From assembly GCF_000027125.1 (NCBI RefSeq), contig NC_017626.1: a stretch of 64,000 nt of DNA; one strand, written 5' to 3'. A model generated the notes under the pieces. It ran no database searches. It was not told the origin of the DNA and saw only the letters and a program-made list of their open reading frames with translations. Source of the stretch: Escherichia coli 042 (GTDB taxonomy: Bacteria; Pseudomonadota; Gammaproteobacteria; Enterobacterales; Enterobacteriaceae). Position 1 is the stretch's first letter; every line of letters starts with the position of its first letter. Shown here piece after piece: positions 6,160-26,667 of this stretch. Position numbers and translations under genes: made by a program.

Positions 6160-6579
6160 TTAAGAGGCTTTTTGTTTTTTCTTTCGTGCTAACTCTTCGT
6201 AAATTGCATTGTACTTCTGTTTTTTCTCCTCAAGAGTTTTTAAAAGTTCATCTGTCTCACTGTCAGGGAGCTCGTCCAGAAGGTCAATGATGATTTTTTG
6301 TCTTGGATTTAACTCCTGATAGAAACGTACCTGTCCACTTTCTTCTGTATCCTCTCCCAAAAGATAGGTTGGTGTTGTTCCAATGAGTGTTGCTAATTCC
6401 CTTAATTTCTCTCGGCGAGGAATTGTTTCGCCATTAAACCATTTGCTAACCGCTTTTGGTGTTAATTTCATTCGACGGGCAATTTCTGCCTGCCTTCCAT
6501 GTTGTTCATAACCAGCGTTTTCACAGGCTAGCGCAAGCCTACTGGCGAACTCTTTACGCGCTTTATCTTCATGAACCAT
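6160..6579 (-). CDS. racR: Prophage repressor, HTH XRE family (RacR-like), 139 aa
   Basis: HTH motif (QAEIARRMKLTPKAVSKW); divergent from ydaS/ydaT as in Rac. Confidence 0.75.
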   Translation of the reverse strand: MVHEDKARKEFASRLALACENAGYEQHGRQAEIARRMKLTPKAVSKWFNGETIPRREKLRELATLIGTTPTYLLGEDTEESGQVRFYQELNPRQKIIIDLLDELPDSETDELLKTLEEKKQKYNAIYEELARKKKQKAS

Positions 6580-6603
6580 AAGTTCAATGATATTCGCTCT
6601 TGA

Positions 6604-6634
6604 ATGTACTGTCAGTTCTGTTATAGCATGTACT
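6604..6634. promoter_or_regulatory. Candidate right operator/divergent promoter region (ATGTACT x2)
   Basis: atgtact at 6604-6610 and 6628-6634 in the 80-bp racR-ydaS intergenic region. Confidence 0.35.
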
Positions 6635-6658
6635 CAAAGTTCACATTGTGAGGGTGAT

Positions 6659-6913
6659 ATGAACCAGAAAACACTTGAAGATGTAATCAAAACTGTTCGC
6701 GTTTCTGTTGTGGCCGACGTTTGTGGTGTCAGCCAAAGAGCAATCTACAAATGGATGGATAACGGAAAATTGCCTCGCACAGAATATACCGGCGAAACAA
6801 ATTACGCTGAAAAAATCGCTCATGCATCAAACGGATTATTTTCTGCCGATGCAATTTTAACTATTGGCAGAAATAAAACTACTACGAAAAAGCTGATGGG
6901 AGTTGATTCATGA
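6659..6913 (+). CDS. ydaS: Cro-like HTH protein YdaS
   Basis: Translation MNQKTLEDVIKTVRVSVVADVCGVSQRAIYKW; position right of repressor. Start uncertain. Confidence 0.7.
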   Translation: MNQKTLEDVIKTVRVSVVADVCGVSQRAIYKWMDNGKLPRTEYTGETNYAEKIAHASNGLFSADAILTIGRNKTTTKKLMGVDS

Positions 6914-7332
6914 AAATCAAGCATGAGCACATCGAATCAGTGTTGTTAGCCCTGGCTGCTGAAAAAGGGCAGGCATGGGTAGCCAATGCCATTACTGAAG
7001 AATATCTGCGCCAGGGGGGCGGCGAATTGCCTCTGGTTCCAGGCAAGGACTGGAACAATCAGCAGAATATCTATCACCGTTGGTTGAAAGGTGAAACGAA
7101 AACGCAAAGAGAAAAAATTCAGAAGCTGATCCCAGCAATTCTGGCAATCCTTCCGCGCGAGCTGCGTCACCGACTCTGCATCTTCGATACCTTGGAACGC
7201 CGTGCATTACTGGCGGCGCAGGAAGCGTTAAGTACGGCAATTGATGCGCATGATGATGCTGTCCAGGCCGTTTACCGGAAAGCGCATTTCAGCGGTGGCG
7301 GGTCTTCCGACGATTCTGTCATTGTTCATTAA
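6910..7332 (+). CDS. ydaT: YdaT (140 aa), toxic Rac protein repressed by RacR
   Basis: 140-aa ORF overlapping ydaS stop (ATGA); matches ydaT size and synteny. Confidence 0.8.
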   Translation: MKIKHEHIESVLLALAAEKGQAWVANAITEEYLRQGGGELPLVPGKDWNNQQNIYHRWLKGETKTQREKIQKLIPAILAILPRELRHRLCIFDTLERRALLAAQEALSTAIDAHDDAVQAVYRKAHFSGGGSSDDSVIVH

Positions 7333-7344
7333 GCAAAAGTTTTC

Positions 7345-8202
7345 ATGCTGTTTGTGCTTATTCTAAGCAACCGGACAGCATCATACGGGGCAATTATGGC
7401 CGCATTACCATACATGCAACTGTACATAGCTGATTACTTGGCTGACACCATGCATTTGTCAGCAGAGGAGCACGGTGCGTATTTGTTGCTGATGTTCAAT
7501 TACTGGCAAACAGGAAAGCCAATACCCAAAAACAGGCTGGCAAAAATTGCCCGTCTGACTAACGAGCGATGGGCTGATGTTGAACCATCCTTGCGGGAGT
7601 TTTTTTGCGATAACGGCGAGGAATGGGTGCATCTTCGGATTGAGGAAGATCTGGCATCAGTCAGGGAAAAATTAACCAAAAAATCAGCCGCAGGAAAAGC
7701 ATCTGTTCAGGCCAGAAGAAGCAGAAAGGAAGCAGATGTTCAAACAAAACAAGAGAGAAATTTAACAGGTGTTCAAACAGATGTTGAAGTGGTGTTTGAA
7801 CATGATGCCAACACAAAGGCAACTAATAAAGATACAGATAAAGATCTAAAAACAGATCCCCCCCTAAATCCCCCCCGGGGGAATCGAGGTGTCAAAAAGT
7901 TTGACCCTCTGGATATTGCTTTGCCGAACTGGATTTCTGTCTCGCTTTGGCGTGAGTGGGTTGAATTTCGCCAGGCATTGCGTAAACCGATTCGAACGGA
8001 GCAGGGCGCTAACGGGGCGATACGGGAGCTGGAAAAATTCCGCCAGCAGGGTTTTTCACCTGAGCAGGTGATTCGACACAGCATCGCCAATGAATACCAA
8101 GGCTTGTTCGCGCCAAAAGGTGTTCTACCTGAGACGTTACTCCGACAGGTTAACACCGTCTCGTTACCGGATAGTGCGATCCCGCCAGGCTTCAGGGGGT
8201 AA
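7345..8202 (+). CDS. ydaU: Replication initiation protein O-like (YdaU), 285 aa
   Basis: 285-aa ORF, same length as K-12 YdaU; precedes DnaC-like gene. Confidence 0.75.
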   Translation: MLFVLILSNRTASYGAIMAALPYMQLYIADYLADTMHLSAEEHGAYLLLMFNYWQTGKPIPKNRLAKIARLTNERWADVEPSLREFFCDNGEEWVHLRIEEDLASVREKLTKKSAAGKASVQARRSRKEADVQTKQERNLTGVQTDVEVVFEHDANTKATNKDTDKDLKTDPPLNPPRGNRGVKKFDPLDIALPNWISVSLWREWVEFRQALRKPIRTEQGANGAIRELEKFRQQGFSPEQVIRHSIANEYQGLFAPKGVLPETLLRQVNTVSLPDSAIPPGFRG

Positions 8203-8208
8203 CTGACC

Positions 8209-8955
8209 ATGAAAAATATTGCGGCAGGCGGCATTCTTGAACGTATCCGCAGACTGGCCCCGCCACATGTAACCGCCCCATTCAAAACGGTAGCGGAGTG
8301 GCGCGAGTGGCAACTTTCCGAAGGCCAGAAACGTTGTGAGGAGATCAACCGTCAGAATCGTCAGTTGCGGGTGGAAAAAATTCTGAATCGCTCTGGCATC
8401 CAGCCATTGCACCGCAAATGCTCGTTTGCGAATTACCAGGTGCAGAACGACGGTCAGCGATACGCGTTGAACCAGGCGAAATCTATCGCTGATGAACTGA
8501 TGACCGGGTGTACAAATTTTGCGTTCAGCGGAAAACCTGGTACCGGAAAAAACCATCTGGCGGCGGCTATCGGGAATCGCCTGCTGAAAGATGGCCAGAC
8601 AGTGATTGTGGTTACCGTGGCTGATGTCATGAGTGCTCTACACGCCAGCTATGACGACGGGCAATCAGGCGAAAAATTTTTGCGGGAACTGTGCCAAGTG
8701 GATCTGCTGGTTCTTGATGAAATTGGCATTCAGCGCGAGACAAAAAACGAGCAGGTGGTGCTGCACCAGATTGTTGATCGCCGGACAGCGTCGATGCGCA
8801 GCGTGGGGATGCTGACAAACCTGAACTATGAGGCCATGAAAACATTGCTCGGCGAGCGGATTATGGATCGCATGACCATGAACGGCGGGCGATGGGTGAA
8901 TTTTAACTGGGAGAGCTGGCGTCCGAATGTCGTCCAGCCAGGAATTGCGAAGTGA
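8209..8955 (+). CDS. ydaV: DnaC-like helicase loader (YdaV), 248 aa
   Basis: Walker [14 protein letters not shown], Walker B LLVLDEIG. Confidence 0.85.
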
Positions 8956-8977
8956 TTTTTACCGGGAGGAAATTTTA

Positions 8978-9739
8978 ATGGAAACCGTTTTTGATGCACT
9001 GAAAGCAATGGGAAAAGCCACGTCGGTAGAACTGGCTGCGCGACTTGATATCAGTCGTGAAGAAGTGCTGAACGAGCTGTGGGAACTTAAAAAGGCTGGC
9101 TTCGTTGATAAAAGCGTATACACCTGGCGTGTGGCTGATAACAACGTTCAGCAGGAACAGCCAGAGCAGGCAGAACTGCCGGAAGAAACCACCACGGCAA
9201 CAGTAGCGAAAATCTCAGAGTGCGATTTAACCGCGACGATTGAACAACGTGGCCCACAAACGGCGGATGAACTGGCTACGTTTTTCGGCACCACATCACG
9301 CAAAGTGGCTTCAACGCTGGCAATGGCAATCAGCAAAGGCCGTCTGATTCGCGTTAATCAGAACGGTAAATTTCGTTACTGCATGCCGGGCGATGATTTA
9401 CCAGCAGAGCCGAAAGCTGCATCGGTAACGGAAACTGATGGTAAAGCCTTTCCTCAACCAGCAGGTGTTGCGTTACCGGGACAGGAAGCTGCAACACAGG
9501 AAGATATTAAAACAGAAACTGTGGCGGACATTGTGCAGTCGTTGCCATCGTTTACCGAAACGCGAGCGGATGACCTCGTTCTGCCATCGCTGCATATGGC
9601 AAACCGCGAACTGCGTCGGGCGAAAAATCATGTCCAGAAGTGGGAACGTGTCTGCGCCGCGCTGCGGGAGCTGAACAAGCACCGGGATATTGTTCGACAG
9701 ATTACTGATTCTTCTCGCTGTGTTGCATCGGAAAAGTGA
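8978..9739 (+). CDS. Phage hypothetical protein (YdaW-like), 253 aa
   Basis: ORF with strong RBS GGGAGGA before ATG at 8978; function unknown. Confidence 0.55.
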
Positions 9740-9754
9740 TTGCCGGAGGCGCTT

Positions 9755-10171
9755 ATGGCAAAAGTATTTACACAAGAAGAGCGGGAAAAAATCAAGGGAC
9801 AGGTTGTTGAGCTAGTACGCCGGAGTGGGCGCGAGACGTTACGGCAACTGGAAGCCAAGACAGGTGCGACAAGATATCTGATGAGCGTTCTCGCCAGAGA
9901 GCTGGTTGCCAGTGGCGATGTATACAACTCTGGCTACGGGTTATTCCCGTCTGAACAGGCTCGTAAGGACTGGCAAAATGCCCGCAAAAAACTATCTAGG
10001 GCAAAGGTGAAGAAACCATCTGTGGTTGATCCGGACCTTATCTGGTCATTACCTGACGGAGAAATACGTCGTTATGACAGGCACCAAAACATAATTTGCT
10101 GTGAGTGCCGGAAGAGCGAAGTTATGCAGCGCATACTGGCATTTTATCAGAGAAATTTTCGTTATTTATAG
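9755..10171 (+). CDS. Phage hypothetical protein, 138 aa
   Basis: ORF with GGAGG RBS; C-terminal Cys pair (CCEC). Confidence 0.5.
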   Translation: MAKVFTQEEREKIKGQVVELVRRSGRETLRQLEAKTGATRYLMSVLARELVASGDVYNSGYGLFPSEQARKDWQNARKKLSRAKVKKPSVVDPDLIWSLPDGEIRRYDRHQNIICCECRKSEVMQRILAFYQRNFRYL

Positions 10172-10334
10172 ACGTTACTCGATTAAAGAGCATTAGTTCA
10201 GATGTGAATTGACATTTTCACGGCACAGGATTGAGCTAGCGTGGTTGTCTGCTTTGTGTCAAAAGCAGATATTACCAGATTTAGACATCTATTCCCGATA
10301 GCCCTGCTCTGATGCTACACTCTGTGCTATTTTC

Positions 10335-11021
10335 ATGACCCCAATAAAAATATTTATGACTATTGCTGATTTCAAACGGCCTAAATTGGAGCTCCCAAAC
10401 GGGGCAAACAAACTACTACTGCACTCTTGCTGTGCTCCATGTTCCGGTGAAGTGATGGAGGCGCTTCAGGCCTCGGGAATCGACTATACCATCTTTTTCT
10501 ACAACCCGAACATTCATCCTCAGAAAGAGTATTTAATTCGTAAGGATGAGAATATTCGCTTTGCTGAACAACACGGCGTGCCATTTATTGATGCTGATTA
10601 CGACACAGACAACTGGTTTGAACGTGCCAAAGGAATGGAATGGGAGCCCGAGAGGGGGATCCGTTGTACCATGTGTTTTGACATGCGTTTTGAGCGGACA
10701 GCGCTGTACGCTGCTGAAAATGGTTTCAGTGTGATCAGCAGTTCACTGGGCATTTCACGCTGGAAAAATATGCAGCAGGTTAACGACTGTGGGCGGCGAG
10801 CCGTCGCGCATTATCCGGGCATGGTGTACTGGGATTATAACTGGCGCAAGCAGGGCGGCTCGTCCCGCATGATTGAAATCAGCAAGCGCGAAAAATTCTA
10901 TCAGCAGGAATATTGTGGCTGTGTGTATTCTCTGCGCGATACCAATCTACACCGCAAATCTCAGGGACGCCCTCTTATCAAAATTGGTCAACTCCACTAC
11001 GGTAAAGAAGAGAAGGAGTGA
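10335..11021 (+). CDS. DUF208/QueH-like Fe-S protein (epoxyqueuosine reductase family)
   Basis: N-terminal [21 protein letters not shown] and C-terminal YCGCVYSL motifs typical of QueH. Start codon uncertain (10335 or 10356). Confidence 0.65.
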
Positions 11022-11201
11022 TTTTATGGAGCACCTTTCTTATTGATTTCATATTGGCGAGGTAGCGGGAGTTAAGTAAAATTGCTGCGGGTGCTTGAGG
11101 CTATCTGCCTCAGGCATGAACACCAAAAGGCAGATAGAGAAAAGCCCCAGTTAACATTACGCGTCCTGCAAGACGCTTAACATTAATCTGAGGCTCAATC
11201 T

Positions 11202-11414
11202 ATGCTGAACACATGTAGGTTAGCCTCTTACGTGCCGAAAGGCAAGGAGAAGCAGGCTATGAAGCAGCAAAAGGCGATGTTAATCGCCCTGATCGTCATC
11301 TGTTTAACCGTCATAGTGACGGCACTGGTAACGAGGAAAGACCTCTGCGAGGTACGAATCCGAACCGGGCAGACGGAGGTCGCTGTCTTCACAGCTTACG
11401 AACCTGAGGAGTAA
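11202..11414 (+). CDS. mok: mok-like overlapping reading frame (translational coupling to hok)
   Basis: 70-aa frame that contains the hok ORF in-frame, as in hok/mok loci. Confidence 0.5.
   Translation: MLNTCRLASYVPKGKEKQAMKQQKAMLIALIVICLTVIVTALVTRKDLCEVRIRTGQTEVAVFTAYEPEE
11259..11414 (+). CDS. hok: Hok/Gef family membrane toxin (51 aa)
   Basis: MKQQKAMLIALIVICLTVIVTALVTRKDLCEVRIRTGQTEVAVFTAYEPEE: Hok-family TM helix plus conserved C..E..R. Confidence 0.85.
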   Translation: MKQQKAMLIALIVICLTVIVTALVTRKDLCEVRIRTGQTEVAVFTAYEPEE

Positions 11415-11880
11415 GAGACCGGGCGAGGGAGAAATCCCTCGCCACCTCTGATGTATTATGCATCCTCAACGCACCCACACTTAACCAGTTTTGGCGAGTT
11501 TATTTTATCTGTAAATATTTTTATAAAAATAATGCCCACGCACAGCATAAAACAAAAAGTATTACAGATAAAAAAGGAGCGTAATGTGCAGATTTGTTGT
11601 TTTCCATATTTACTCACCTTAATATGATTGATCTTGATAGGATTGTTATTTCAGTGGTTTTCAAATGAGATATTATGGTGATCTGGTAGATTTGCATAAC
11701 ATTAAAATTTAATTTGTTTAACCGCTTTTAATAATAAGCGTTGTTTTTATCCCGGCAATCTGTTGTTTGGTTTTTATTCCATTAAGGTGGGGACTTTACA
11801 CTGGAGCCAGTTTATTTATACTTCATACGTCAGCCTGAACAACTGGCATCTGCTGCACTGCGCCATCGAGAGATTGAGAA

Positions 11881-12480
11881 ATGGCGCATATACAACTGGT
11901 CAAACAAACTTCTTCTGGTTTACTTCTCCCGGCGACGCCGGAGAGTTGCGATTTTCTGCATCAAATCAAAATAGGTGAGTGGATACACGCAGACTTTAAG
12001 CGTGTGCGTAACTACGCATTCCACAAGCGTTTTTTCAAACTCCTGCAACTGGGATTCGATTACTGGACTCCGGTCGGTGGGGCGATCACACCTCGCGAAC
12101 GAGAAATGGTGTTCGGCTTCGTTGATTACCTGTGTGAATCAGTAGGCAGGGAACATACGCCAGCTCTGAGTGATGCCGCGGAACAATATCTGAATACCGT
12201 TGCGACACGCAGAACCCGGGATATGGCATTGCTCAAATCATTTGACGCTTTCCGCGAGTGGGTAACCATTCAGGCCGGATTTTACACCGAGCATTTTTAT
12301 CCTGATGGTAGTCGTGGGCGTCGGGCGAAATCCATCGCGTTTGCGAATATGGACGAAACCGAGTTTCAGCAGGTTTATAAATCTGTACTGAATGTGCTGT
12401 GGAACTGGATTCTGTTCCGTAAATTTTCCTCTCCGGAACAAGTCGAAAATGTGGCCGCGCAGCTACTGGAGTTTGCGTAA
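11881..12480 (+). CDS. Phage nin-region protein of unknown function, 199 aa
   Basis: ORF immediately upstream of and abutting the YbcO-like gene. Confidence 0.55.
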   Translation: MAHIQLVKQTSSGLLLPATPESCDFLHQIKIGEWIHADFKRVRNYAFHKRFFKLLQLGFDYWTPVGGAITPREREMVFGFVDYLCESVGREHTPALSDAAEQYLNTVATRRTRDMALLKSFDAFREWVTIQAGFYTEHFYPDGSRGRRAKSIAFANMDETEFQQVYKSVLNVLWNWILFRKFSSPEQVENVAAQLLEFA

Positions 12481-12770
12481 TGGTGGATTTACGTAAAGCG
12501 GCGCGGGGCCAGATGTGCCAGGTCAGAATCCCTGGCTACTGCAATCACAATCCCGAAACTTCTGTGCTGGCGCATTACAGGTTGGCAGGGACGTGCGGAA
12601 CAGCGACAAAACCACACGATATGCAGGCAGCGATTGCCTGTAACTCATGCCACGATTTAATCGACGGGCGGGTAAAAACCAGCGATTACACCAAAGAAGA
12701 ATTACGCCTGATGCATGCAGAAGGTGTTTTTCGCACGCAAGAAATCTGGAGAAAGGAAGGTTATTTATGA
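12480..12770 (+). CDS. YbcO-like DUF1364 phage protein (putative nuclease), 96 aa
   Basis: Conserved Cys pattern (CQVRIPGYCN...CNSCHD) as in DLP12 YbcO. Confidence 0.7.
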   Translation: MVDLRKAARGQMCQVRIPGYCNHNPETSVLAHYRLAGTCGTATKPHDMQAAIACNSCHDLIDGRVKTSDYTKEELRLMHAEGVFRTQEIWRKEGYL

Positions 12771-13303
12771 TTTACCCAACAAATACAGGCAAAAGCGGGG
12801 AACACCTTCGTCTCACCACGCTGGAAAGTGTCTGGATTCAGGGAAAACTGCGCATGTGGGGGCGCTGGTCGTATATTGGCGGCGGTAAGACGGGGAATAT
12901 GTTTAACCAGTTGCTGGCGTCAAAAAAATTGACGAAAACAGCCATCAATGAAGCCCTGCGCAGAATGAAAAAAGCGGGAATAGAGAAAGCTGAGCTGGAA
13001 GCGTTTTTGCGAGAGATGATCAACGGCAAGCAAAAGAGCTGGCTGGCGCATTGTACTGATGCAGAGGCACTAAAAATTGATAGTGTTATAGGTGAAGTTC
13101 TGGCGGATCATCCAGGACTACTAAATGTCCTGAGTCAGCGTTATGTGGGGCGAGGGATGAGTAAGAGAAGGATGGCCGAGTTATTAAACGAACAGTACCC
13201 AGAGTGGGCGTTGATTACATGCCGACGTCGTGTTGATCAGTGGTTGCGTGTTGCTGAGTTCATTTTGTATTCACCTATGAGAGAAGCGTTCGATTATGCT
13301 TAA
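12767..13303 (+). CDS. Late-gene antiterminator Q-like protein, 178 aa
   Basis: Position (last gene before tRNAs and lysis cassette), overlap with upstream gene, RBS GAAAGGAAGG; family assignment from memory only. Confidence 0.55.
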   Translation: MIYPTNTGKSGEHLRLTTLESVWIQGKLRMWGRWSYIGGGKTGNMFNQLLASKKLTKTAINEALRRMKKAGIEKAELEAFLREMINGKQKSWLAHCTDAEALKIDSVIGEVLADHPGLLNVLSQRYVGRGMSKRRMAELLNEQYPEWALITCRRRVDQWLRVAEFILYSPMREAFDYA

Positions 13304-13399
13304 AAAATCATTGCAAAATGAGCCACAAACTGCTTCAATTTCGGTACGCTTCGCATAGCTGTATCGCGAGGCAAATTAAGCGCATGAACTTTAATACAA

Positions 13400-13426
13400 C
13401 CCGCCATTGAGCGGGTTTTGTTGTTT
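13400..13426 (+). terminator. Candidate tR'-type intrinsic terminator
   Basis: cccgc-cattga-gcggg stem-loop followed by ttttgttgttt. Confidence 0.4.
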
Positions 13427-13558
13427 CTGTGGCGTGATATCAGAAACGACATTTAATAATCGCCTTCAAAATAAATTTGTTTATACATTGTCATGTATAT
13501 TTTAAGTGAAAGTGAATTATTCACATAAAATAAAAACACATAAATAAATTTACATAAC

Positions 13559-13590
13559 TTGACGCAAAGTGTTGTTGCGATTGGAATATT
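13559..13590 (+). promoter_or_regulatory. Candidate sigma-70 promoter for the tRNA pair
   Basis: TTGACG then 17-nt spacer then TGGAAT; AT-rich UP-like tract upstream. Confidence 0.25.
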
Positions 13591-13665
13591 AAATCGTATC
13601 ATCGAAAACGGTTCTGAGGGGGAACTCTTCTTTGCTCGGTGATATCGCTCCCCTGAAGAACCAAT

Positions 13666-13741
<76 letters not shown>

Positions 13742-13744
13742 TAT

Positions 13745-13819
<75 letters not shown>

Positions 13820-14121
13820 GCATTTGAAACAAGCCTTATTGTATTGCGGCACTGGCGTATTTTTTTATTACGTGGGAGCAGGTTGTTTTGAAAAAGCATT
13901 CTGTTCTCTGGCTATGATTTGAGGCCGGGTGTAGCCTCAGTGCTGATTTTTTACGGCAGCAGAATGGTGCATTATCGGTGGAGATTTTGTATTTCCTGGC
14001 AGGGTCGGTGATGCATCATTCTGGTGTTGTAAAAGCACCGCAGAGGCGTTCCTCAGGGCGAGGGTGGTTTAAAGAGTCGGTTTAGCGGGAAACCACAGTA
14101 TCCATACGGCACGGAATACTT

Positions 14122-14148
14122 CGGGAGGCACCCGACGCCTCGGTTTTA
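14122..14148 (+). terminator. Terminator-like hairpin
   Basis: gaggc-acccgac-gcctc then ggtttta. Confidence 0.3.
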
Positions 14149-14182
14149 TAACAATTAAATAATTCATCCCTTAATTGACCAA

Positions 14183-14207
14183 CCGCCGTATCAGGCGGTT
14201 TTTTTTA
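14183..14207 (+). terminator. Intrinsic terminator
   Basis: ccgcc-gtatca-ggcgg followed by T9. Confidence 0.5.
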
Positions 14208-14595
14208 TTCCTTTCTCAGGACAAAAAAATACACGAGCATCCAGGAATACTCGTGGGACAACGTCCTTTGGATAGCAATTTGCGAGAGGGTGAAAAGTAG
14301 CGCGGTCGTCGGATTAAGACCGCGGGACAAAGTCCATGAAGAAGAATAAGTATCGGTCTCCTTCCGGAGACGAGTTGATATTACTAAGCTTTAAAAATGG
14401 TTTAAATCCTCAGATCAACCTTAATTTCAGATAAGGTTTATTTCATTTTCTCCGCGTCACATCCGACGCACATCACATCAGATAACACCACACAAAAGGC
14501 ATCTGCGGGTGTCTTTGACGGGGTGTTTTTTACGGGCCGCTGGTGGCCATTTTTTGTTTCCATTACACAGCGCCCGCATCTGCGAGGTGGGGGTT

Positions 14596-14811
14596 ATGAA
14601 ATCCATGGATAAGTTAACAACGGGTGTCGCCTATGGCACCTCCGCAGGCAGTGCTGGCTACTGGTTTTTACAGCTGCTCGATAAAGTCACGCCCTCACAG
14701 TGGGCAGCAATAGGTGTGCTGGGTAGCTTGGTATTTGGCCTGCTGACGTACCTGACAAACCTTTATTTCAAGATTAAAGAAGATAAGCGCAAGGCTGCGA
14801 GAGGTGAATAA
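14596..14811 (+). CDS. Pinholin, phage 21 S21-type, dual-start (MKSM), 71 aa
   Basis: [26 protein letters not shown]...; RBS GAGGTGGGGG; two start Mets three codons apart. Confidence 0.85.
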
Positions 14812-15308
14812 TGCCTCCATCATTACGAAAAGCCGTTGCTGCTGCTATTGGTGGCGGAGCAATTGCTATAGCATCAGTGTTAATCACTGGCCCAAGTGGT
14901 AACGATGGTCTGGAAGGTGTCAGCTACATACCATACAAAGATATTGTTGGTGTATGGACTGTATGTCACGGGCATACAGGAAAAGACATCATGCTCGGTA
15001 AAACGTATACCAAAGCAGAATGCAAAGCCCTCCTGAATAAAGACCTTGCCACGGTCGCCAGACAAATTAACCCGTACATAAAAGTTGATATACCGGAAAC
15101 AACGCGCGGCGCTCTTTACTCGTTCGTTTACAACGTGGGCGCTGGCAATTTCAGAACATCGACGCTTCTTCGCAAAATAAACCAGGGCGATATCAAAGGC
15201 GCATGTGATCAGCTACGTCGCTGGACATATGCTGGCGGTAAGCAATGGAAAGGTCTCATGACTCGTCGTGAGATTGAGCGTGAAATCTGTTTGTGGGGTC
15301 AGCAATGA
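14811..15308 (+). CDS. SAR endolysin (R21-type lysozyme), 165 aa
   Basis: N-terminal Gly/Ala-rich signal-anchor-release segment [18 protein letters not shown]; lysozyme body. Confidence 0.85.
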
Positions 15309-15769
15309 ACAGAGTAACCGCGATTATCTCCGCTCTGGTTATCTGCATCATCGTCTGCCTGTCATGGGCTGTTAATCATTACCGTGATAATGCCATTACC
15401 TACAAAGCGCAACGCGATAATGTGAAGGAAAAACTCAACCAGGCGACCGCAATCATTACTGACATGCAGATACGCCAGCGTGATGTTGCTGCACTCGATG
15501 CAAAATACCTGAAGGAGTTAGCTGATGCGAAAGCTGAAAATGATGCTCTGCGTGATGATGTTGCCGCTGGTCGTCGTCGGTTGCACATCAAAGCAGTCTG
15601 TCCGTCCGTGCGTGAAGCCACCATCGCCTCCAGCGTGGATAATGCAGTCTCCCCCAGACTGGCAGACACCGCTGAACGGGATTATTTCACCCTCCGGGAA
15701 CGACTGGTAATGATGCAGGCCCAACTTGAAGGTGCTCAGCAATACATAACCGAACAGTGTTTAAAGTAA
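15305..15769 (+). CDS. Spanin inner-membrane subunit Rz
   Basis: N-terminal TM, coiled-coil body, follows endolysin. Confidence 0.8.
15525..15710 (+). CDS. Spanin outer-membrane lipoprotein Rz1 (embedded in Rz, +1 frame)
   Basis: Lipobox LVVVGC, Pro-rich mature part, fully nested in Rz. Confidence 0.75.
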
Positions 15770-15906
15770 AATCTTAACTACAATATGATTCATTTTGATG
15801 ATTGTTTCATAAGGAACAGTGAAGTAAGATCTAAGATGAGTTAAATTTTATACAGTATAATCATAATGTTGCAGCAAGGTGGTTATAATTGAAAGAATAT
15901 TTAGAT

Positions 15907-17364
15907 ATGAATACATCTCATGTAAGAGTTGTTACTCATATGTGTGGGTTCCTGGTTTGGCTCTATAGTCTTTCAATGTTGCCACCAATGGTTGTAGCAT
16001 TGTTTTATAAAGAAAAAAGCCTGTTCGTTTTCTTTATAACTTTCGTTATATTTTTTTGCATTGGTGGCGGAGCGTGGTATACAACTAAGAAATCTGGTAT
16101 TCAATTACGTACCCGTGATGGGTTTATTATAATTGTAATGTTTTGGATTTTGTTTTCTGTTATTAGTGCATTCCCTTTATGGATTGACTCAGAACTTAAT
16201 TTAACGTTTATTGATGCTCTATTTGAAGGGGTTTCTGGAATAACAACAACAGGAGCAACTGTAATTGATGATGTTAGTTCATTACCTCGGGCATATTTGT
16301 ACTATCGGTCACAGTTAAATTTTATAGGTGGCTTAGGAGTTATTGTTCTGGCGGTTGCTGTATTGCCATTATTGGGTATTGGTGGTGCAAAGCTTTATCA
16401 GTCAGAAATGCCAGGGCCATTTAAGGATGACAAACTTACTCCCCGCCTGGCCGATACGTCACGGACACTTTGGATAACTTATTCTTTATTAGGTATTGCT
16501 TGTATTGTCTGTTATAGACTTGCAGGAATGCCTTTGTTTGATGCTATTTGTCACGGGATATCCACAGTTTCGCTTGGTGGTTTCTCAACTCATAGCGAGA
16601 GTATCGGATATTTTAATAACTATTTGGTTGAGCTGGTGGCTGGTTCTTTTTCCCTGCTATCGGCTTTCAACTTCACCCTTTGGTATATTGTTATTAGCAG
16701 GAAAACGTTAAAACCTTTAATCAGAGATATTGAACTTCGTTTCTTTCTGTTAATAGCCTTAGGGGTGATCATTGTTACCTCTTTCCAGGTCTGGCATATA
16801 GGTATGTATGACTTGCCTGGAAGTTTTATTCATTCGTTTTTTCTTGCCAGCTCCATGCTCACTGATAATGGTTTAGCTACGCAGGATTACGCAAACTGGC
16901 CCACGCACACGATAGTGTTTTTGCTGTTGTCAAGTTTCTTTGGGGGATGTATAGGTTCAACTTGTGGTGGAATTAAGTCACTTCGATTTCTTATACTTTT
17001 CAAACAAAGCAAACACGAGATAAACCAGCTTTCTCATCCCAGAGCGTTGTTGAGTGTAAATGTAGGAGGGAAGATAGTTACAGATCGTGTAATGAGGTCT
17101 GTATGGAGTTTCTTTTTTCTTTATACTCTCTTCACGGTGTTTTTTATACTGGTGTTAAATGGTATGGGATATGATTTTCTTACATCATTTGCAACAGTGG
17201 CTGCATGTATTAATAATATGGGATTAGGTTTTGGGGCTACTGCATCGTCATTCGGAGTGCTTAATGACATTGCAAAATATTTAATGTGCATAGCTATGAT
17301 TCTTGGTCGCCTTGAAATTTATCCTGTTATTATATTGTTTTCAGGTTTTTTTTGGCGCTCCTAA
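15907..17364 (+). CDS. trkG: Potassium uptake protein TrkG (485 aa)
   Basis: Polytopic membrane protein matching TrkG/TrkH; AT-rich relative to flanks. Confidence 0.85.
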   Translation: MNTSHVRVVTHMCGFLVWLYSLSMLPPMVVALFYKEKSLFVFFITFVIFFCIGGGAWYTTKKSGIQLRTRDGFIIIVMFWILFSVISAFPLWIDSELNLTFIDALFEGVSGITTTGATVIDDVSSLPRAYLYYRSQLNFIGGLGVIVLAVAVLPLLGIGGAKLYQSEMPGPFKDDKLTPRLADTSRTLWITYSLLGIACIVCYRLAGMPLFDAICHGISTVSLGGFSTHSESIGYFNNYLVELVAGSFSLLSAFNFTLWYIVISRKTLKPLIRDIELRFFLLIALGVIIVTSFQVWHIGMYDLPGSFIHSFFLASSMLTDNGLATQDYANWPTHTIVFLLLSSFFGGCIGSTCGGIKSLRFLILFKQSKHEINQLSHPRALLSVNVGGKIVTDRVMRSVWSFFFLYTLFTVFFILVLNGMGYDFLTSFATVAACINNMGLGFGATASSFGVLNDIAKYLMCIAMILGRLEIYPVIILFSGFFWRS

Positions 17365-17501
17365 TATATGGCTGATTTATAATTGTGAGTTTAATATTAT
17401 ATTGACTCACTCATTGATCCAATACCTAACTTTACCAGCAACACCTCCGCCCCCAGTAGCACTGGCTGCTGGGGTGCGTTTTATTCATAAAGCAAGGCTG
17501 T

Positions 17502-18293
17502 ATGAGCGAGAAATTGAAGATCGTCTATCGCCCTTTACAAGAACTGTCTCCGTATGCACACAACGCCAGGACACACAGCCCTGAGCAGGTGGCACAACTG
17601 GTAGAAAGCATTAAGCAATTCGGCTGGACTAATCCGGTGCTGATTGATGAAAAGGGCGAAATTATTGCTGGTCACGGTCGCGTTATGGCGGCTGAAGTGC
17701 TCAAAATGGATTCCATTCCGGTCATCGTTCTGTCTGGTTTGATGGATGATCAGAAAAAGGCGTACCGCCTGGCAGATAATCGCCTGCCGCTGAACGCTGG
17801 CTGGGATGAAGAACTGTTGCGGATGGAGCTGTCGGAGCTAATCAATGCTGATTTTGATATCTCCCTGACAGGATTCAGCCCGACAGAAATTGATGAACTG
17901 TTGACGGATGTTTTGCCAGGTACAGGAAATGAGGAGGAGCCGTACACGACGAAAATTGATACGCCTGTTTATGAGCCGTCGGGCGATAAACCGGACATCA
18001 GTGAGCTGTACGACGATACGAAAACTCAGGAGCTGATCAGCCGGATACGTTCGGCGTCCCTTGAGCCCGATATCGAAAAATTCCTCCTGTGCGCGGCAGA
18101 ACGCCACACGGTGTTTAATTTCAGCAGAATTGCGGACTATTACGCTCACGCCCCCGCTGAAATTCAGTGTTTTTTCGAGGAGTCGGCGCTGGTGATCATT
18201 GATTATCAGCAGGCTATTGAAAATGGATTTGTCCGGATGACGCAGCGCATGGTGGAGATCATGCATGGTGGTGAGGAGGAGGAATATGCGTGA
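17502..18293 (+). CDS. ParB-like nuclease domain protein, 263 aa
   Basis: N-terminal ParB/Srx-like motif (GHGR..A); acidic C-terminus. Confidence 0.65.
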   Translation: MSEKLKIVYRPLQELSPYAHNARTHSPEQVAQLVESIKQFGWTNPVLIDEKGEIIAGHGRVMAAEVLKMDSIPVIVLSGLMDDQKKAYRLADNRLPLNAGWDEELLRMELSELINADFDISLTGFSPTEIDELLTDVLPGTGNEEEPYTTKIDTPVYEPSGDKPDISELYDDTKTQELISRIRSASLEPDIEKFLLCAAERHTVFNFSRIADYYAHAPAEIQCFFEESALVIIDYQQAIENGFVRMTQRMVEIMHGGEEEEYA

Positions 18294-19218
18294 TGATTTT
18301 TGCGCCTTTATTCTGACTCACGGGCGACCGGACAAAGTTCTGACTTACCGGACGTTGCGTCGTGCTGGCTATACCGGGAAAATTTTTATCGTTGTTGATG
18401 ATGAAGATAAGACACGGCATCAGTACATGGCTGAATTTGGTGAACAGGTGCTGGTGTTTTCCAAAGCCGATATCGCCAGTCGTTTTGACGAAGCCGATAA
18501 TTTCGGTGACCGCCGCTCAATTTTTTACGCCCGTAATGCCTGTTTCGACCTGGCAAAACTGGTCGGGTGTAAATACTTCATTCAGCTCGATGATGATTAT
18601 CACGAGTTCCAGTTTCGGGTGGATCGCAACTATGACCAGGCCTATTTTCCGATAAGGAAACTGGATGCGATCCTTTCTGAAATGCTGGCGTACTACGAAT
18701 CAATACCTGCTCTTTCCATCGCTATGTCGCAGGGCGGGGATTTTCTTGGTGACAATGGCGGCCATGCTTCGTGGGTGAAACGCAAGGCAATGAACAGCTT
18801 TATCTGTTCGGTTGATCGACCGTTCTCATTCATGGGGCGCATTAACGAGGATGTGAATACGTACACGAATCTCGGTCGCTGTGGTGAATTGTTTATGACG
18901 ATCGGTGCTGTCCAGTTAGGGCAGAAACAGACGCAGAAAAACAGCGGCGGAATGACCGAGCTGTATCTGGATTCCGGAACCTACGTTAAAAGTTTTTACT
19001 CCGTCATGTATGCGCCGTCGTGCGTAAAAATCTCACTGATGGGTGCCAGCCATAAACGCATTCACCATCAGGTCACCTGGAACAACGCTGCAGTAAAAAT
19101 CCTTCACGAAAAATACAGGAAGAAGACACCCTGCATATCAATAGGGGTGACAAATGATTCCATATTCGAAAGTCGAGTCTCTGGCAGCGTGCCGGATGAC
19201 TGCACAACAAATCGCTGA
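18286..19218 (+). CDS. Hypothetical protein, 310 aa (possible nucleotide-sugar transferase-like fold)
   Basis: Strong RBS GAGGAGGAGG; motifs FILTHGRP, IVVDDED, FIQLDDDY suggest DXD-type transferase but unverified. Confidence 0.5.
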   Translation: MRDDFCAFILTHGRPDKVLTYRTLRRAGYTGKIFIVVDDEDKTRHQYMAEFGEQVLVFSKADIASRFDEADNFGDRRSIFYARNACFDLAKLVGCKYFIQLDDDYHEFQFRVDRNYDQAYFPIRKLDAILSEMLAYYESIPALSIAMSQGGDFLGDNGGHASWVKRKAMNSFICSVDRPFSFMGRINEDVNTYTNLGRCGELFMTIGAVQLGQKQTQKNSGGMTELYLDSGTYVKSFYSVMYAPSCVKISLMGASHKRIHHQVTWNNAAVKILHEKYRKKTPCISIGVTNDSIFESRVSGSVPDDCTTNR

Positions 19219-19405
19219 CGTTCTGGATGTTGATCTGAACCGACTGAAAGAAAATCGGGAAGCAATGACAGATTTTTATGCGGCCATCCGTAAGGGCAGA
19301 GCGAAAGGTGAAGCCGAGTTACGAGCGGCATTGTTTAAGCTTGCCAGAAAAGGGGATGCCTTTGCTCTGCGCGAACTACTCAGGGTGGATAAAAATCAGG
19401 ACTAA
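19154..19405 (+). CDS. Small HTH-like phage protein, 83 aa
   Basis: ORF overlapping end of upstream gene; start uncertain. Confidence 0.4.
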   Translation: MIPYSKVESLAACRMTAQQIADVLDVDLNRLKENREAMTDFYAAIRKGRAKGEAELRAALFKLARKGDAFALRELLRVDKNQD

Positions 19406-19408
19406 CTG

Positions 19409-20503
19409 ATGAGCAGACCGGACTGGGGGGCGTTGCAGCAGGAGTATATTGCTGAATACACCCGCTCCGGTATATCTCCGGTGGCATGGTGTGAAGCAAG
19501 GGGACTGAATTACGCAACAGCCCGTCGTTACATCAAAAAACCTCCGAAAAATGCGCAGACAGAAATGCGCAAAACTGCGCAAAAAAGTGCGCAGAAAAAA
19601 TCTGCGCAGACTGCACAAAAGCGGAACGAAAAATCTCAGGAAAAAAAGCCAGTATTCGATGCGGGCCTGAATGAGGGCGACGCGGAGGAATTTTCGTTCT
19701 GTCCCGATGAATTCGGCATTTCTGACCAGCAGGCTAAGTTTGCGATGCTTGTTGCTCAGGGGAAAAAGCCGACAGAGGCGTACCGACTAGCCGGTTATGA
19801 GGGGCAAGGTGCGACAGCTAACAGCAACGCCAGTCGTATGCTTAGAAATGCCAGGGTTTTTCGCGCTATCAGCTACTTCCGCAATCAGTACCAGAAACGC
19901 TATACCGCAGACCTGGATTTACTGGTGAGTCAGTTGATGGCCATTGTCCTGGCCGACCCCAATCAGCTTGCACAATTTCGCCGTGTTAACTGCCGTTATT
20001 GCTGGGGCGAGAATCATCTCTACCAGTGGCGCGATATAGCAGAATTCGACAAGGCAGCGGCGCAGGCTTCCAGAGATGGCAAACCCGAACCGGAATATGG
20101 AGGCCTCGGCTTTGTTGATAACGCCATACCCAATCCGGACTGCCCGAAGTGCTGCGGTGAGGGAACGGGACAGCTTTATATGGCTGATACCACTCTGCTT
20201 GATGGGGATGCGCGGCAATTATATGCAGGGGCAAAACTCGGAAAATTCGGCGTTGAGATCCTGCTGGAGGATAAGGCTGCCGCCCGGCGTGAATTGTTGC
20301 GTTTGCTTTCTGCTGGCGGGGCTTTATGTGCAGATAAGCGGCTACAGGAACTGGAAATTGAACGACGCAGAATGGAAAACCAGAAGCTGCGCAAAGAGAT
20401 CGAAACGGTGGAAGATAATGAACATCCCCAGCCTGTGGCGATCAATATTAATGTGGTTGATGCCAGAGTAAGGAGTGATGAAGATGATCTCTCCGACGCT
20501 TAA
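19409..20503 (+). CDS. Terminase small subunit (P27-type), 364 aa
   Basis: N-terminal HTH, position directly upstream of large terminase. Confidence 0.7.
   Translation: MSRPDWGALQQEYIAEYTRSGISPVAWCEARGLNYATARRYIKKPPKNAQTEMRKTAQKSAQKKSAQTAQKRNEKSQEKKPVFDAGLNEGDAEEFSFCPDEFGISDQQAKFAMLVAQGKKPTEAYRLAGYEGQGATANSNASRMLRNARVFRAISYFRNQYQKRYTADLDLLVSQLMAIVLADPNQLAQFRRVNCRYCWGENHLYQWRDIAEFDKAAAQASRDGKPEPEYGGLGFVDNAIPNPDCPKCCGEGTGQLYMADTTLLDGDARQLYAGAKLGKFGVEILLEDKAAARRELLRLLSAGGALCADKRLQELEIERRRMENQKLRKEIETVEDNEHPQPVAININVVDARVRSDEDDLSDA
19550..19620 (+). repeat. TGCGCA(G/A) direct-repeat array (5-6 copies, 9-15 bp spacing)
   Basis: tgcgca at 19552, 19566, 19576, 19588, 19603, degenerate 19612. Confidence 0.6.
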
Positions 20504-21785
20504 TGTGCCTCAGGCGCGATTTCTTTCAATGCCCCATAAATTTAAAGCCTATATTGCTGGTTTTGGCTCGGGCAAAACATGGGTTGGGTGTGGCGGCATA
20601 TGCAAGGGGATTTGGGAGCATCCAGGTATAAATCAGGGATATTTTGCGCCAACGTATCCCCAAATTCGCGATATTTTTTACCCTACAGTGGAAGAAGTTG
20701 CTGCTGACTGGGGATTGAACGTAAAAATTAATGAGGGAAATAAAGAGGTTCACTTTTATTACGGACGCCAGTATCGGGGAACCACTATCTGCAGATCGAT
20801 GGAGAAGCCACAAACGATCGTCGGTTTCAAAATTGGTAATGCGCTGGTGGATGAACTGGACATTTTGCCGAAGGAAAAAGCCAGAACGGCGTGGCGCAAG
20901 ATAATTGCGCGTATGCGTTATAAGATTGATGGACTTCGCAACGGTATTGACGTTACAACCACGCCGGAAGGATTCAAATTTGTCTACGAGCAGTTTGTTA
21001 AAGCCGTGCGTGAAAAAACAGAGCTGGCCTCACTGTATGGTCTGGTGCAGGCATCTACTTTCGATAATGAAAAGAACCTGCCAGCAGATTACATTCCTTC
21101 GCTTCTTGAATCATACCCACCAGAGCTGATTAAAGCCTATCTTCGAGGACAGTTTACTAACCTGACAAGTGGTACTGTTTACCATCAGTTTGACCGGAAA
21201 CTGAATAATTGCGAAGAAGTGGAGCAGCCAGGGGAGCCGATTTATATTGGGATGGATTTTAACGTTGGAAAGATGGCGGGGATCGTCCATGTGCTGCGTT
21301 TGGGGCTTCCATGTGCGGTAACTGAAATCATCAATGCCTACGATACGCCGGATATGATCCGCATCATTAAAGAACGCTTCTGGCTGTATGACGGGAATGA
21401 TTACCGGAAAGTGAGGGAGATTTATATTTATCCAGATGCTTCCGGAGATTCCAGAAAATCAAGTAACGCAAGTACGACGGATATAGCCCAGCTTAAGCAG
21501 GCTGGTTTTAACGTTGTGGTGAACAGCTCGAACCCGCCAGTAAAAGATCGCGTTAACTCAATGAATGCAATGTTCTGCAATGCCAATGGTGAGCGTCGCT
21601 ATAAAGTTAATGTGAAGCGTTGTCCGGTATATGCCGAATCTCTGGAGCAACAGGTCTGGGATGATAAGGGGGAGCCTGATAAAAAATCTGGCAATGATCA
21701 CCCGAATGATGCCGGAGGTTATTTCATCGTTAAGCAATTCCCTATTGTCAAACCGACCGGAAGAGTCACATCACTTCGGATTTAA
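20475..21785 (+). CDS. Terminase large subunit, 436 aa
   Basis: Walker A GFGSGKT near N-terminus; size and position. Confidence 0.85.
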   Translation: MMKMISPTLNVPQARFLSMPHKFKAYIAGFGSGKTWVGCGGICKGIWEHPGINQGYFAPTYPQIRDIFYPTVEEVAADWGLNVKINEGNKEVHFYYGRQYRGTTICRSMEKPQTIVGFKIGNALVDELDILPKEKARTAWRKIIARMRYKIDGLRNGIDVTTTPEGFKFVYEQFVKAVREKTELASLYGLVQASTFDNEKNLPADYIPSLLESYPPELIKAYLRGQFTNLTSGTVYHQFDRKLNNCEEVEQPGEPIYIGMDFNVGKMAGIVHVLRLGLPCAVTEIINAYDTPDMIRIIKERFWLYDGNDYRKVREIYIYPDASGDSRKSSNASTTDIAQLKQAGFNVVVNSSNPPVKDRVNSMNAMFCNANGERRYKVNVKRCPVYAESLEQQVWDDKGEPDKKSGNDHPNDAGGYFIVKQFPIVKPTGRVTSLRI

Positions 21786-21787
21786 TT

Positions 21788-23194
21788 ATGGCTGATATAT
21801 CAACACCCAACCTCGACTATAACGATATGCTGGAGGCGTGGGATATTAACGACGCATTGATGGGCGGTACGCTTGAAATGCGCAGGCAGGGGGAAAATTA
21901 TCTCCCCAAATGGCCTAATGAAGATGAAGACGCTTATAAAAAACGCCTGTCTGTGGCTACGCTACTTCCTGTGTATGAAGAAAGCATCAAACAAAATATT
22001 GGGCGCATATTTGCAGAGCCGACAGTATTGAGTGAGGAAACGCCGGAAAAAATCAGGGAATATGCAGAAAATATCGACATGGAGGGGAGCCGACTGGATG
22101 TGTGGGCGCAGCAATTTTTCAGTCTCGCATTTCAGTATGGTGTGGCACATGCGCTGGTGGACTATCCACGGACGGATATGAAAGAGATTCGGACAAAAGC
22201 CGATGAAAACGCGGCCGGTGGTCGCCCGTACGTTACGATGCTGAATCCACGCCAGGTTATTGGATGGAAATCGAAAGTTGAAAAAGGGAAAGTTGTTCTC
22301 ACTGATTTGCGTATAAAAGAGGTCATCATTATTGATGGTGATGATTTCGGGCAGAAGAAGGTGGAGCAGATCCGCCATATTATGCCCCGTCGAGTTGAAA
22401 TTTATCGACGCAGCGAAGGTACTAATGGCGAATCTGTCTGGACGCTTCATGAGTCATGGAATACCAGCCGTGATGATATTCCTCTGGTAACACTGTATAC
22501 GAAGAAAACAGGGTTTATGCGTGGTACACCGCCATTGCTTAATCTTGGCTTGCTGAATATCAAGCACTGGCAAAGCCAGAGCGAGCAGGACAATATTCTT
22601 CATGTTGCCCGCGTTCCATTGCTGGTGGCCTACGGGCTGGACAGGAATGAAGAACTGACGGTTGGTGCATCCACCGCTACGATTTTTGAGGACAGAACAA
22701 AAAATGGCCTCGAATATGTTGAACATAGTGGCGCAGCGATAGAATCTGGCGAAACATCACTTGAGAAGCTGGAAAATCAGATGCGTCATGCCGGCGCTAA
22801 ACTTCTGCGGGCTGAAAATACATCCACCAAATCTGTTGATCAGACTAATGAAGAGCGGATGCAGGAACACTCGCCGCTTTATACAATGGCGAACTCCCTC
22901 GAAGATGCCCTCGATAATATTCTCCAGATAATGGCGGAATGGAGCGGAGAGAGTTGCGGTGGCAATGTGGATGTGCGCACTGAACTGGATGTATCTGCCC
23001 AGGTGTTTGACTCATCCTCCGCGCTGGCTGTTCAGTCATTGCGTCAGGGCGGTGATATACGTCAGATTGATGCGGTTCGGGTGTTGCAGGCGTTGAAATT
23101 TATCGATCAGGATTCCCGTCCAGAGGAAGTGATCGATGAATTAAAAAATCAGAGTGTAATGCTGATGGAAATCAATGATGCAAACCGTGAATGA
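21788..23194 (+). CDS. Portal protein, 468 aa
   Basis: Follows terminase; size. Confidence 0.7.
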   Translation: MADISTPNLDYNDMLEAWDINDALMGGTLEMRRQGENYLPKWPNEDEDAYKKRLSVATLLPVYEESIKQNIGRIFAEPTVLSEETPEKIREYAENIDMEGSRLDVWAQQFFSLAFQYGVAHALVDYPRTDMKEIRTKADENAAGGRPYVTMLNPRQVIGWKSKVEKGKVVLTDLRIKEVIIIDGDDFGQKKVEQIRHIMPRRVEIYRRSEGTNGESVWTLHESWNTSRDDIPLVTLYTKKTGFMRGTPPLLNLGLLNIKHWQSQSEQDNILHVARVPLLVAYGLDRNEELTVGASTATIFEDRTKNGLEYVEHSGAAIESGETSLEKLENQMRHAGAKLLRAENTSTKSVDQTNEERMQEHSPLYTMANSLEDALDNILQIMAEWSGESCGGNVDVRTELDVSAQVFDSSSALAVQSLRQGGDIRQIDAVRVLQALKFIDQDSRPEEVIDELKNQSVMLMEINDANRE

Positions 23195-24290
23195 ACGGCT
23201 GCGTGATGAATCAATTGCTCATGCAGTCTGGATATCCCGCTATAGCACTGGTGTGGCTGCCAGAATAGTGAAAATACTGAATGACAGCGATGCGGAGCTT
23301 ACAGCTCGCCTGCTGGTAGCACTGGACAGCCTCGATCCTAGTAGTTTTACCGTTACGCGCCTGGAGTCACTTCTGGCGAGTGTCAGAGAGGTTAACCGCA
23401 CTGCTATTAACAGCATGTTTACCAGTCTCTCCGGAGAGCTGAACGAGCTGGCAATTTATGAGGTTGGTTATCAGTTAAGTCTGTTTGATTCTCTGCTACC
23501 TGATTTTGTTGCTGATGTTCACCCTCTGGTTGGTATCTCTTCTGATGCACTTTACGCCGCTGCAATGGCGCGACCATTCCAGGGACGACTGCTCAGTGAG
23601 TGGGCCTCAGATCTTGAGGCGGATCGGCTCAGACGCATAACAAATACGGTGCGTCAGGGTTTTTTGCTGGGGGATACCAATGAGCAGATCGCAAGAAAAA
23701 TTCGGGGACATGTCAGTAAGGGATTTCAGGATGGTGCATTGCAGATGAGCCGGGCTAATGCGGCCAGCATTGCAAAAACAGCGGTTGGACATCTTGCTGC
23801 TACTGCTCGTGAGAGTTTTGCACGCGCGAATAATGATTTGATTAAGGGTAAGCAATGGTTATCAACGCTTGATAATCGTACTACGCCACAATGTCGAATC
23901 AGGGATCGCCTCAAATATACGCTGGATAATAAACCTGTAGGTCACAGCGTGCCTTATTTGCAGGGGCCGGGAAAAATTCATTTCTGCTGCCGCTCAACGG
24001 AAACGTTCATTCTGAAATCAGCGAAGGAACTGGGTATTGATGTTCGTGATATTTCCCCGGCTGAGCGGGCCAGCATGGATGGCGTGGTGGCCGGAGATAC
24101 AACCTACAGGGAATGGTTTTTGCGTCAGCCTTACACCAGACAAAAACAGATTGTGGGGGAAACCCGGGCAAAGCTGATTCGGGATGGTGGTATGTCGCCA
24201 GATGAATTTTACACCGATAAAGGCGAATGGCTGACGCTGAAGCAACTCCGTGAGCGTGATGCACAGGTATTCAGAAAAGCAGGGATTTAA
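23175..24290 (+). CDS. Head morphogenesis protein (Mu F / SPP1 gp7-like), 371 aa
   Basis: Position after portal; family assignment from memory. Confidence 0.6.
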   Translation: MMQTVNERLRDESIAHAVWISRYSTGVAARIVKILNDSDAELTARLLVALDSLDPSSFTVTRLESLLASVREVNRTAINSMFTSLSGELNELAIYEVGYQLSLFDSLLPDFVADVHPLVGISSDALYAAAMARPFQGRLLSEWASDLEADRLRRITNTVRQGFLLGDTNEQIARKIRGHVSKGFQDGALQMSRANAASIAKTAVGHLAATARESFARANNDLIKGKQWLSTLDNRTTPQCRIRDRLKYTLDNKPVGHSVPYLQGPGKIHFCCRSTETFILKSAKELGIDVRDISPAERASMDGVVAGDTTYREWFLRQPYTRQKQIVGETRAKLIRDGGMSPDEFYTDKGEWLTLKQLRERDAQVFRKAGI

Positions 24291-26664: not shown

Positions 26665-26667
26665 CAC

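Follow-up and report, generated by a model that had tools for sequence, protein, structure and literature searches.

The lysis genes of phage 21 form a characterised system to which the locus considered here can be compared. In the curated phage 21 genome used as reference (OL657228.1), the lysis cassette lies at 39866-41036, and the annotated order of elements is Q, pR'/QBE, a terminator, tRNAs, S71/S68, the signal-arrest-release (SAR) endolysin, the i-spanin and the o-spanin. S21 possesses a releasable, weakly hydrophobic TMD1 and a TMD2 that carries a G40/S44/G48 face. The mechanism involving S68, S71 and the SAR endolysin of phage 21 has been described (PMC9239132), and the same source gives the catalytic triad motif of SAR endolysins as E-X8-D-X5-T. 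Full-size prophages of the Rac family have been described as well. KingRac, a 46.8-kb Rac-like prophage at ttcA, is weakly induced by mitomycin C, forms virions and lysogenised E. coli K-12 in the mouse gut (PMC6731689), and Rac-like prophages of O157:H7 have been reported to be transmissible (PMC4632033).

The DNA analysed here, referred to as the window, is a stretch of 64,000 nt from E. coli 042 (NC_017626.1), and all coordinates are given relative to it. The window begins inside a prophage, with int, xis, attL and the ttcA side lying beyond its left edge. Gene families were assigned from Pfam and PHROG profiles, tRNAs were identified with ARAGORN and Rfam, the comparison with K-12 was done by blastn, and population counts were made among 5,426 complete E. 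coli genomes. The prophage carries a four-gene lysis cassette. Very probably this is its native module for late lysis, and the prophage is a full-length lambdoid member of the Rac family at the ttcA/uspF-ompN locus.

The original prediction was of a phage-21-type cassette consisting of a dual-start pinholin, a SAR endolysin and nested Rz and Rz1 genes, and Pfam and identity data bear this out at the exact coordinates. The first gene, S (14596-14811, plus strand), matches the family 'Bacteriophage P21 holin S' (PF04971) with an E-value of 2e-35 and 121 bits against a cutoff of 26. Its MKSM dual-start motif (14596-14607) supplies Met1 and an extra Lys2, then Met4, so that the antiholin is 71 aa long from the start at 14596 and the pinholin 68 aa from Met4 at 14605; a purine-rich, GAGG-rich ribosome site (GAGGTGGGGG) is located 5' of the gene. 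S is identical to EssD of the K-12 prophage DLP12 over 71/71 residues and to S21 at 61/71 (86%). In a Kyte-Doolittle profile TMD2 (residues 33-60) alone exceeds 1.0, TMD1 being weakly hydrophobic and rich in Gly, Ala and Ser, and G40, S44 and G48 are all kept in TMD2. The family match, the dual start and the two TMDs indicate that S is a member of the phage 21 pinholin family (class II holins).

The product of R (14811-15308, plus strand) is a GH24 lysozyme of 165 aa (PF00959, E = 1.3e-45) which is identical at 164/165 residues to R21 (PDB 3HDE) and likewise at 164/165 to RrrD of DLP12 (4ZPU), with residues 1-97 matching R21 throughout. The triad is complete (E35-X8-D44-X5-T50), and the Ala/Gly-rich N-terminal SAR stretch has A, G, S or T at 13/20 positions in residues 8-27. 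These features identify R as a SAR endolysin of the R21 type, and from its identity to R21 it would be tethered to the membrane and released on depolarisation. Rz (15305-15769, plus strand) encodes the inner-membrane spanin subunit, a protein of 154 aa (PF03245, E = 2.4e-49; PHROG 13 covers 1-154/154) with an N-terminal TMD at residues 1-27 and with Cys99 and Cys152, which we take to be at the positions they have in lambda Rz. Rz is identical to its phage 21 counterpart at 130/153 residues and to that of DLP12 at 125/153, the latter having a different centre and 3' end. Rz1 (15525-15710, plus strand; PF06085, E = 4e-18), which encodes the outer-membrane lipoprotein subunit of 61 aa, is fully embedded in Rz, offset by 220 nt and read in the +1 frame, and its product has a VVGC lipobox with Cys20, a further Cys29, and 9 Pro among 41 mature residues. 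These properties point to a two-component embedded spanin. S and R overlap by TAATG and R and Rz by ATGA. The Pfam E-values of the lysis genes are far past chance level, and the PHROG assignments agree with the lysis roles of S, R, Rz and Rz1. All four genes are full length with their key residues kept, which is in line with the predicted intactness of the cassette, and on this evidence its lysis competence is well supported. Within the central part of Rz, a patch of 100 bp (15378-15477) reaches only ~70-78% identity with each of K-12 Rac, phage 21 and DLP12, compared with 94-100% on either side, and reads as a small gene-conversion-like mosaic.

Phage 21 has the same four genes in the same order, with the same overlaps, the MKSM dual start, the SAR endolysin and the embedded Rz1 (identical to that of the window at 53/60 residues), and DNA identity from the start of S to the end of Rz is 89.9%. 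The two differ in that the nucleotides of S are only 63-76% identical and the C-terminus of Rz is different. Outside the cassette there is no phage 21 homology: Q, the promoter, the tRNAs and the downstream genes differ, with bor following the cassette in phage 21 and trkG following it in the window. The DLP12 cassette (essD-rrrD-rzpD-rzoD) is 92-100% identical to the window over the nucleotides of S and R, but unlike the window DLP12 has a Q82-type gene, quuD, with nmpC upstream and borD downstream.

Upstream of S in the window is a gene for a Q-like late antiterminator (12767-13303, plus strand) containing DUF1133 and belonging to the phage-21 Q family, for which PF06576 covers residues 1-175/176 (E = 7e-103, 341.8 bits) and which PHROG 753 describes as 'anti-termination protein Q-like'. 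The protein is only distantly related to Q21 itself, with 44 identical residues and a weak match to the Q21 structures 6P18/6JNX (E ~2e-4). Directly after the Q stop codon, a candidate late promoter pR' can be read from the sequence as TTGCAA-17 nt-TTCAAT (13311-13339, plus strand). The spacer of this candidate contains a QBE-like AATGAGCC that agrees with the phage 21 QBEd at 7/8 positions, a single 7-8-mer match and as such weak; the phage 21 QBE (ATTGAGCA/AATGAGCA) is likewise placed between the -35 and -10 elements. A simple consensus promoter scan of the region did not call the element at 13311-13339, and its designation as pR' with a QBE is a putative one. The first terminator-like hairpin with a U-run after Q, a candidate tR', is at 13398-13427 (plus strand). 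It is followed on the same strand by genes for tRNA-Thr (TGT; 13666-13741) and tRNA-Gly (TCC; 13745-13819), both called by ARAGORN and scoring 73.8 and 65.6 bits, respectively, with the Rfam tRNA model, and then by a non-coding spacer (13919-14558, plus strand) that has four more terminator-like hairpins (13919, 14125, 14181 and 14535), the last of which lies ~48 nt 5' of the S start. Terminator-like sites in 13200-16000 number 8, versus 2.7 +/- 1.5 in shuffled sequences. An Rfam search of 11000-18000 (E<0.1) returned only the two tRNAs and sok, with no known RNA element in the spacer between Q and S.

Immediately 3' of the cassette is the cargo gene trkG (15907-17364, plus strand; PF02386, E = 1.8e-143; GC 0.38), which encodes a K+ transporter and occupies the same place in K-12 Rac, where rzpR-trkG-ynaK is 96.7% collinear with the window. 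The scan for terminator-like sites gave none in the interval from Rz to trkG. The Rz-trkG junction is found in 1,488 of the 5,426 complete genomes, and this linkage is held in about that number whatever holin module precedes it. The genes that follow trkG are a ParB-like one, one for a TAGT glycosyltransferase and then the complete complement for packaging, head, connector, tail and fibres. The ParB/Srx-like gene (PHROG 620) and the gene after it, a homologue of TET-associated glycosyltransferases (PF20691, E = 6.5e-35; PHROG 842, 'beta-glucosyl-HMC-alpha-glucosyltransferase', E = 2.6e-103), occupy 17502-19218 between trkG and the terminase genes and might work together in DNA modification, although a TET/JBP gene was not seen. 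The ynaK gene of K-12 corresponds to an N-terminal stump of the ParB-like gene.

Because the cassette is nearly identical to the characterised phage 21 system, a similar sequence of events can be proposed for it. Following induction, the DUF1133 Q-like antiterminator would modify RNA polymerase at the promoter just 3' of its own gene, which would allow read-through of about five terminator-like hairpins and the two tRNA genes into S-R-Rz/Rz1, then trkG and then the packaging genes. The two starts of S would yield two products, of which the 68-aa pinholin would accumulate in the inner membrane and the 71-aa form, with its extra Lys, would delay triggering. R would be exported by means of its N-terminal signal-arrest-release domain and held in the membrane in a tethered, inactive state. 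At the trigger time the pinholin is predicted to form nanometre-scale holes that depolarise the membrane, upon which R would be released, refold and degrade the peptidoglycan, and a periplasm-spanning Rz-Rz1 complex would then disrupt the outer membrane. Both expression and timing of the cassette are read here by analogy to phage 21. Several observations count against the proposed late-lysis model, namely that S differs from S21 at 10/71 residues (though it is identical to EssD of DLP12), that the middle of Rz shows only ~72% identity to each of the comparators, that Q is remote from Q21, and that the proposed pR' was not picked up by the promoter scan.

The organization of the surrounding prophage is that of Rac. 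The blastn comparison with K-12 Rac yielded collinear blocks in the same order at 95-99% identity (95-97% when taken as four blocks), and genes of the Rac backbone are matched in order (kilR, sieB, ydaT-U-V-W, Rz/Rz1, trkG, ynaK, ydaY, ynaA and lomR). The right flank is uspF/ompN, and 47981-50174, which includes the attR region, is 98.9% identical to K-12; attL, int, xis and the ttcA end are found in APEC O1, which carries an identical cassette. From these matches the window prophage can be assigned to the Rac family, with the same backbone as K-12 Rac and, judging by its right flank, probably at the same locus. The predicted Rac-type early region is largely upheld, in that 2521-6035 and 6904-9427 are 96% identical to K-12, the exceptions being two tracts for which K-12 Rac has other alleles, one comprising the repressor and cro, the other recT plus the C-terminal part of recE. 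The immunity region (6036-6903) has no similarity to that of K-12 or APEC O1, so the RacR/YdaS region is not among the features shared with K-12; it encodes a different HTH repressor (139 aa; 6160-6579, minus strand) and a cro-like gene. Since the two immunity regions are unrelated, the window prophage is expected to be heteroimmune to K-12 Rac. At the left edge (1-2093), recT, which runs off the window, and the C-terminal nuclease part of the 1007-aa recE are of a non-K-12-Rac allele while the recE N-terminus is Rac-like, which looks like a swap of a matched exonuclease/annealase pair.

The contrast that the original prediction drew with K-12 also holds, as the annotated genes at the lysis position of K-12 Rac are only the rzpR pseudogene and rzoR. 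Comparison by blastn and a base-by-base reading of the junction show that K-12 Rac lacks the interval 9428-15326. Position 9427 of the window, in ydaW, is joined in K-12 to 15327, in Rz codon 8, as GCATCGGTA followed by TCTCCGC, with a 2-bp TA microhomology. The missing 5.9 kb holds the ydaW C-terminus, DUF977, a QueH-like gene, hok/sok, DUF1367, YbcO, Q, the tRNAs, S, R and Rz codons 1-7, and deletion of this segment explains why K-12 is left with an rzpR pseudogene and a lone rzoR. Two of the genes in this interval may be mentioned in their own right: a homologue of the epoxyqueuosine reductase QueH (10335-11021; PF02677, E = 1.9e-65), situated in the early-late region of the prophage, and a hok/sok-type toxin-antitoxin locus (11089-11414) with a sok match in Rfam of 119.6 bits and a 70-aa ORF that has a Hok-like end. 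Two further deletions are seen in K-12 Rac, one of which (17756-29363) fuses ynaK to ydaY and removes the genes from terminase through tail tube, and the other of which (31122-39507) fuses the tape-measure stump ynaA to lomR. The collinear blocks and their junctions indicate that K-12 Rac is a deletion derivative of the layout seen in the window. The junction of the 5.9-kb deletion occurs in 338 of the 5,426 complete genomes, and contiguous S-R-Rz-trkG in 693.

Among sequenced genomes a close relative is the Rac-like prophage of APEC O1 (NC_008563.1, ~1467-1514 kb), which is 100% identical over Q-tRNA-S-R-Rz-trkG and 99.7% identical through the head genes. The near-identity is restricted to 11881-38818; APEC O1 differs in its immunity region, the recET end, the end and state of the tail fibre, and its cargo. 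Five genomes, APEC O1 among them, are 100% identical over a segment of 4.5 kb (13000-17500), but none of the complete genomes follows the window over its whole length. In the identical genomes PGAP already labels the cassette genes essD, rrrD, lysis protein and trkG. In place of the sitABCD operon of the window, APEC O1 has cdt-IV, a hydrolase and an omptin. The terminase small subunit gene of APEC O1 (L001 27012-28106) is a PGAP pseudogene with an internal stop; the window equivalent (19409-20503) is open and encodes 364 aa. The phage vB_EcoS-683R6 (ON470595) was considered as a living phage with the cassette and trkG and was rejected, as its record is a 'partial genome' that carries the host genes dbpA and ttcA and so represents a prophage region.

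It is possible, though we regard it as somewhat improbable, that the cassette is an intact module in a defective prophage, its genes functional or domesticated while the lytic cycle is not completed. Domestication of lysis genes has been proposed for DLP12. Consistent with such a state, int, xis and attL are absent from the window, beyond whose left edge they would lie, and the trkG and sitABCD cargo enlarges the genome by ~5 kb. The repressor (6160-6579) consists of an HTH domain only; as it lacks an S24 peptidase domain for self-cleavage, induction by the classical RecA route would not be expected. In the close relative APEC O1 the terminase small subunit is flagged as a pseudogene and a tail-fibre gene is fragmented. 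The phage-database records that match the head module best are nine ON470 vB_EcoS entries together with Salmonella phage SPF_0923; none of them is confirmed as a propagated phage, and the one inspected was vB_EcoS-683R6. Against a defective prophage, the morphogenesis ORFs of the window are all open, the 364-aa terminase small subunit included, the replication genes ydaU and ydaV are intact, and the right end matches the attR region of K-12 Rac. The intact head and tail modules of the original prediction are likewise found, the packaging, head, connector, tail and fibre ORFs being full length and covering their PHROG profiles. KingRac, which by its published description is a full-size Rac-like prophage at ttcA, was induced, formed virions and lysogenised K-12 (PMC6731689), and the transmissibility reported for the Rac-like prophages of O157:H7 (PMC4632033) argues in the same direction. 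Given the full-length head and tail ORFs and the inducible KingRac, it is plausible that the window prophage is itself inducible.

Alternatively, the cassette could be a recent graft: in this lineage, recombination would have brought an S-R(-Rz) segment of the phage-21/DLP12 type into a Rac backbone whose original lysis module was a different one, or which had lacked one. The original prediction likewise spoke of a cassette grafted onto a Rac-type early region. Homology with non-Rac lambdoid phages begins abruptly at ~14579-14595 and ends in or at the end of Rz; that with phage 21 is confined to the cassette, S start through Rz end, and most other lambdoid phages match 14579-15694 only. Homology limited in this way implies that the cassette is a mosaic module, and S and R have the high nucleotide identity to K-12 DLP12 given above. 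In E. coli ET846 the DUF1367-YbcO-Q block is the same, with 87% identity as far as 13429, and so is the Rz-trkG-terminase block, with 97.9% identity from exactly 15305, the boundary of R and Rz; the genes between Q and Rz are those for a lambda-family holin and for another glycoside hydrolase as endolysin, with no tRNAs. The upstream homology stops right after the candidate tR' hairpin (13398-13427). Different genes at the same flanks indicate that the tRNA-S-R segment (13430-15304) can be swapped among Rac-family prophages, and this part of the grafting claim stands. The remainder is not supported, since Rz/Rz1 at its 3' end and the flank towards trkG are the Rac allele: the 3' end, together with the Rz-trkG spacer, has 96-100% identity to K-12 Rac and only 54-72% to phage 21/DLP12, the Rz 3' end is 98-100% identical to K-12 rzpR, and Rz1 is 57/61 identical to RzoR, with the distinctive C-terminus SGNDW common to both. 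K-12 is moreover a deletion derivative, and the window arrangement is the commonest intact one (693 of 5,426 genomes, versus at most ~457 with any other state) and occurs in diverse strains at 94-100% identity. K-12 keeps nothing 5' of Rz codon 8, so the type of S-R that its ancestor had is not readable, and the proposal that the 21-type S-R was necessarily ancestral to K-12 Rac has been softened in view of those members of the Rac family in which a lambda-family holin module is flanked by this same Q and Rz. Recent grafting is on balance unlikely. Exchange of modules such as S-R is what lambdoid phages normally show, and even if a graft did occur it would therefore mark nothing unusual. That trkG, which adjoins a cassette whose predicted trigger is loss of membrane potential, with no intervening terminator-like site, might when expressed from the late operon alter membrane energisation and tune pinholin trigger timing, rather than be mere lysogen cargo, seems to us highly improbable.

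We therefore retain the reading of the cassette as a late-lysis module native to a full-length prophage of the Rac family. It is a textbook pinholin/SAR-endolysin/spanin module which is known, widespread and already annotated in public genomes; being present in hundreds of sequenced E. coli genomes it is ordinary, and there is little discovery value in the cassette itself. The S-R pair is, judging from the ET846 comparison, one of at least two interchangeable modules at the lysis position of the Rac family, with the window having the commonest version, and the holin-endolysin pair can be seen as an exchangeable unit inside one prophage family. The prophage also contains a sitABCD iron/manganese transporter operon (44324-47773, minus strand), with the tail-fibre genes on one side and the attR region (~48133-48183) on the other. 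For K-12, the losses that made a 'fossil' of Rac are now clear as three clean deletions, the first of which took the whole late-control and lysis region. For the biology of the strain, a Rac-like prophage that is probably lysis-competent could mobilise its cargo, trkG and sitABCD.
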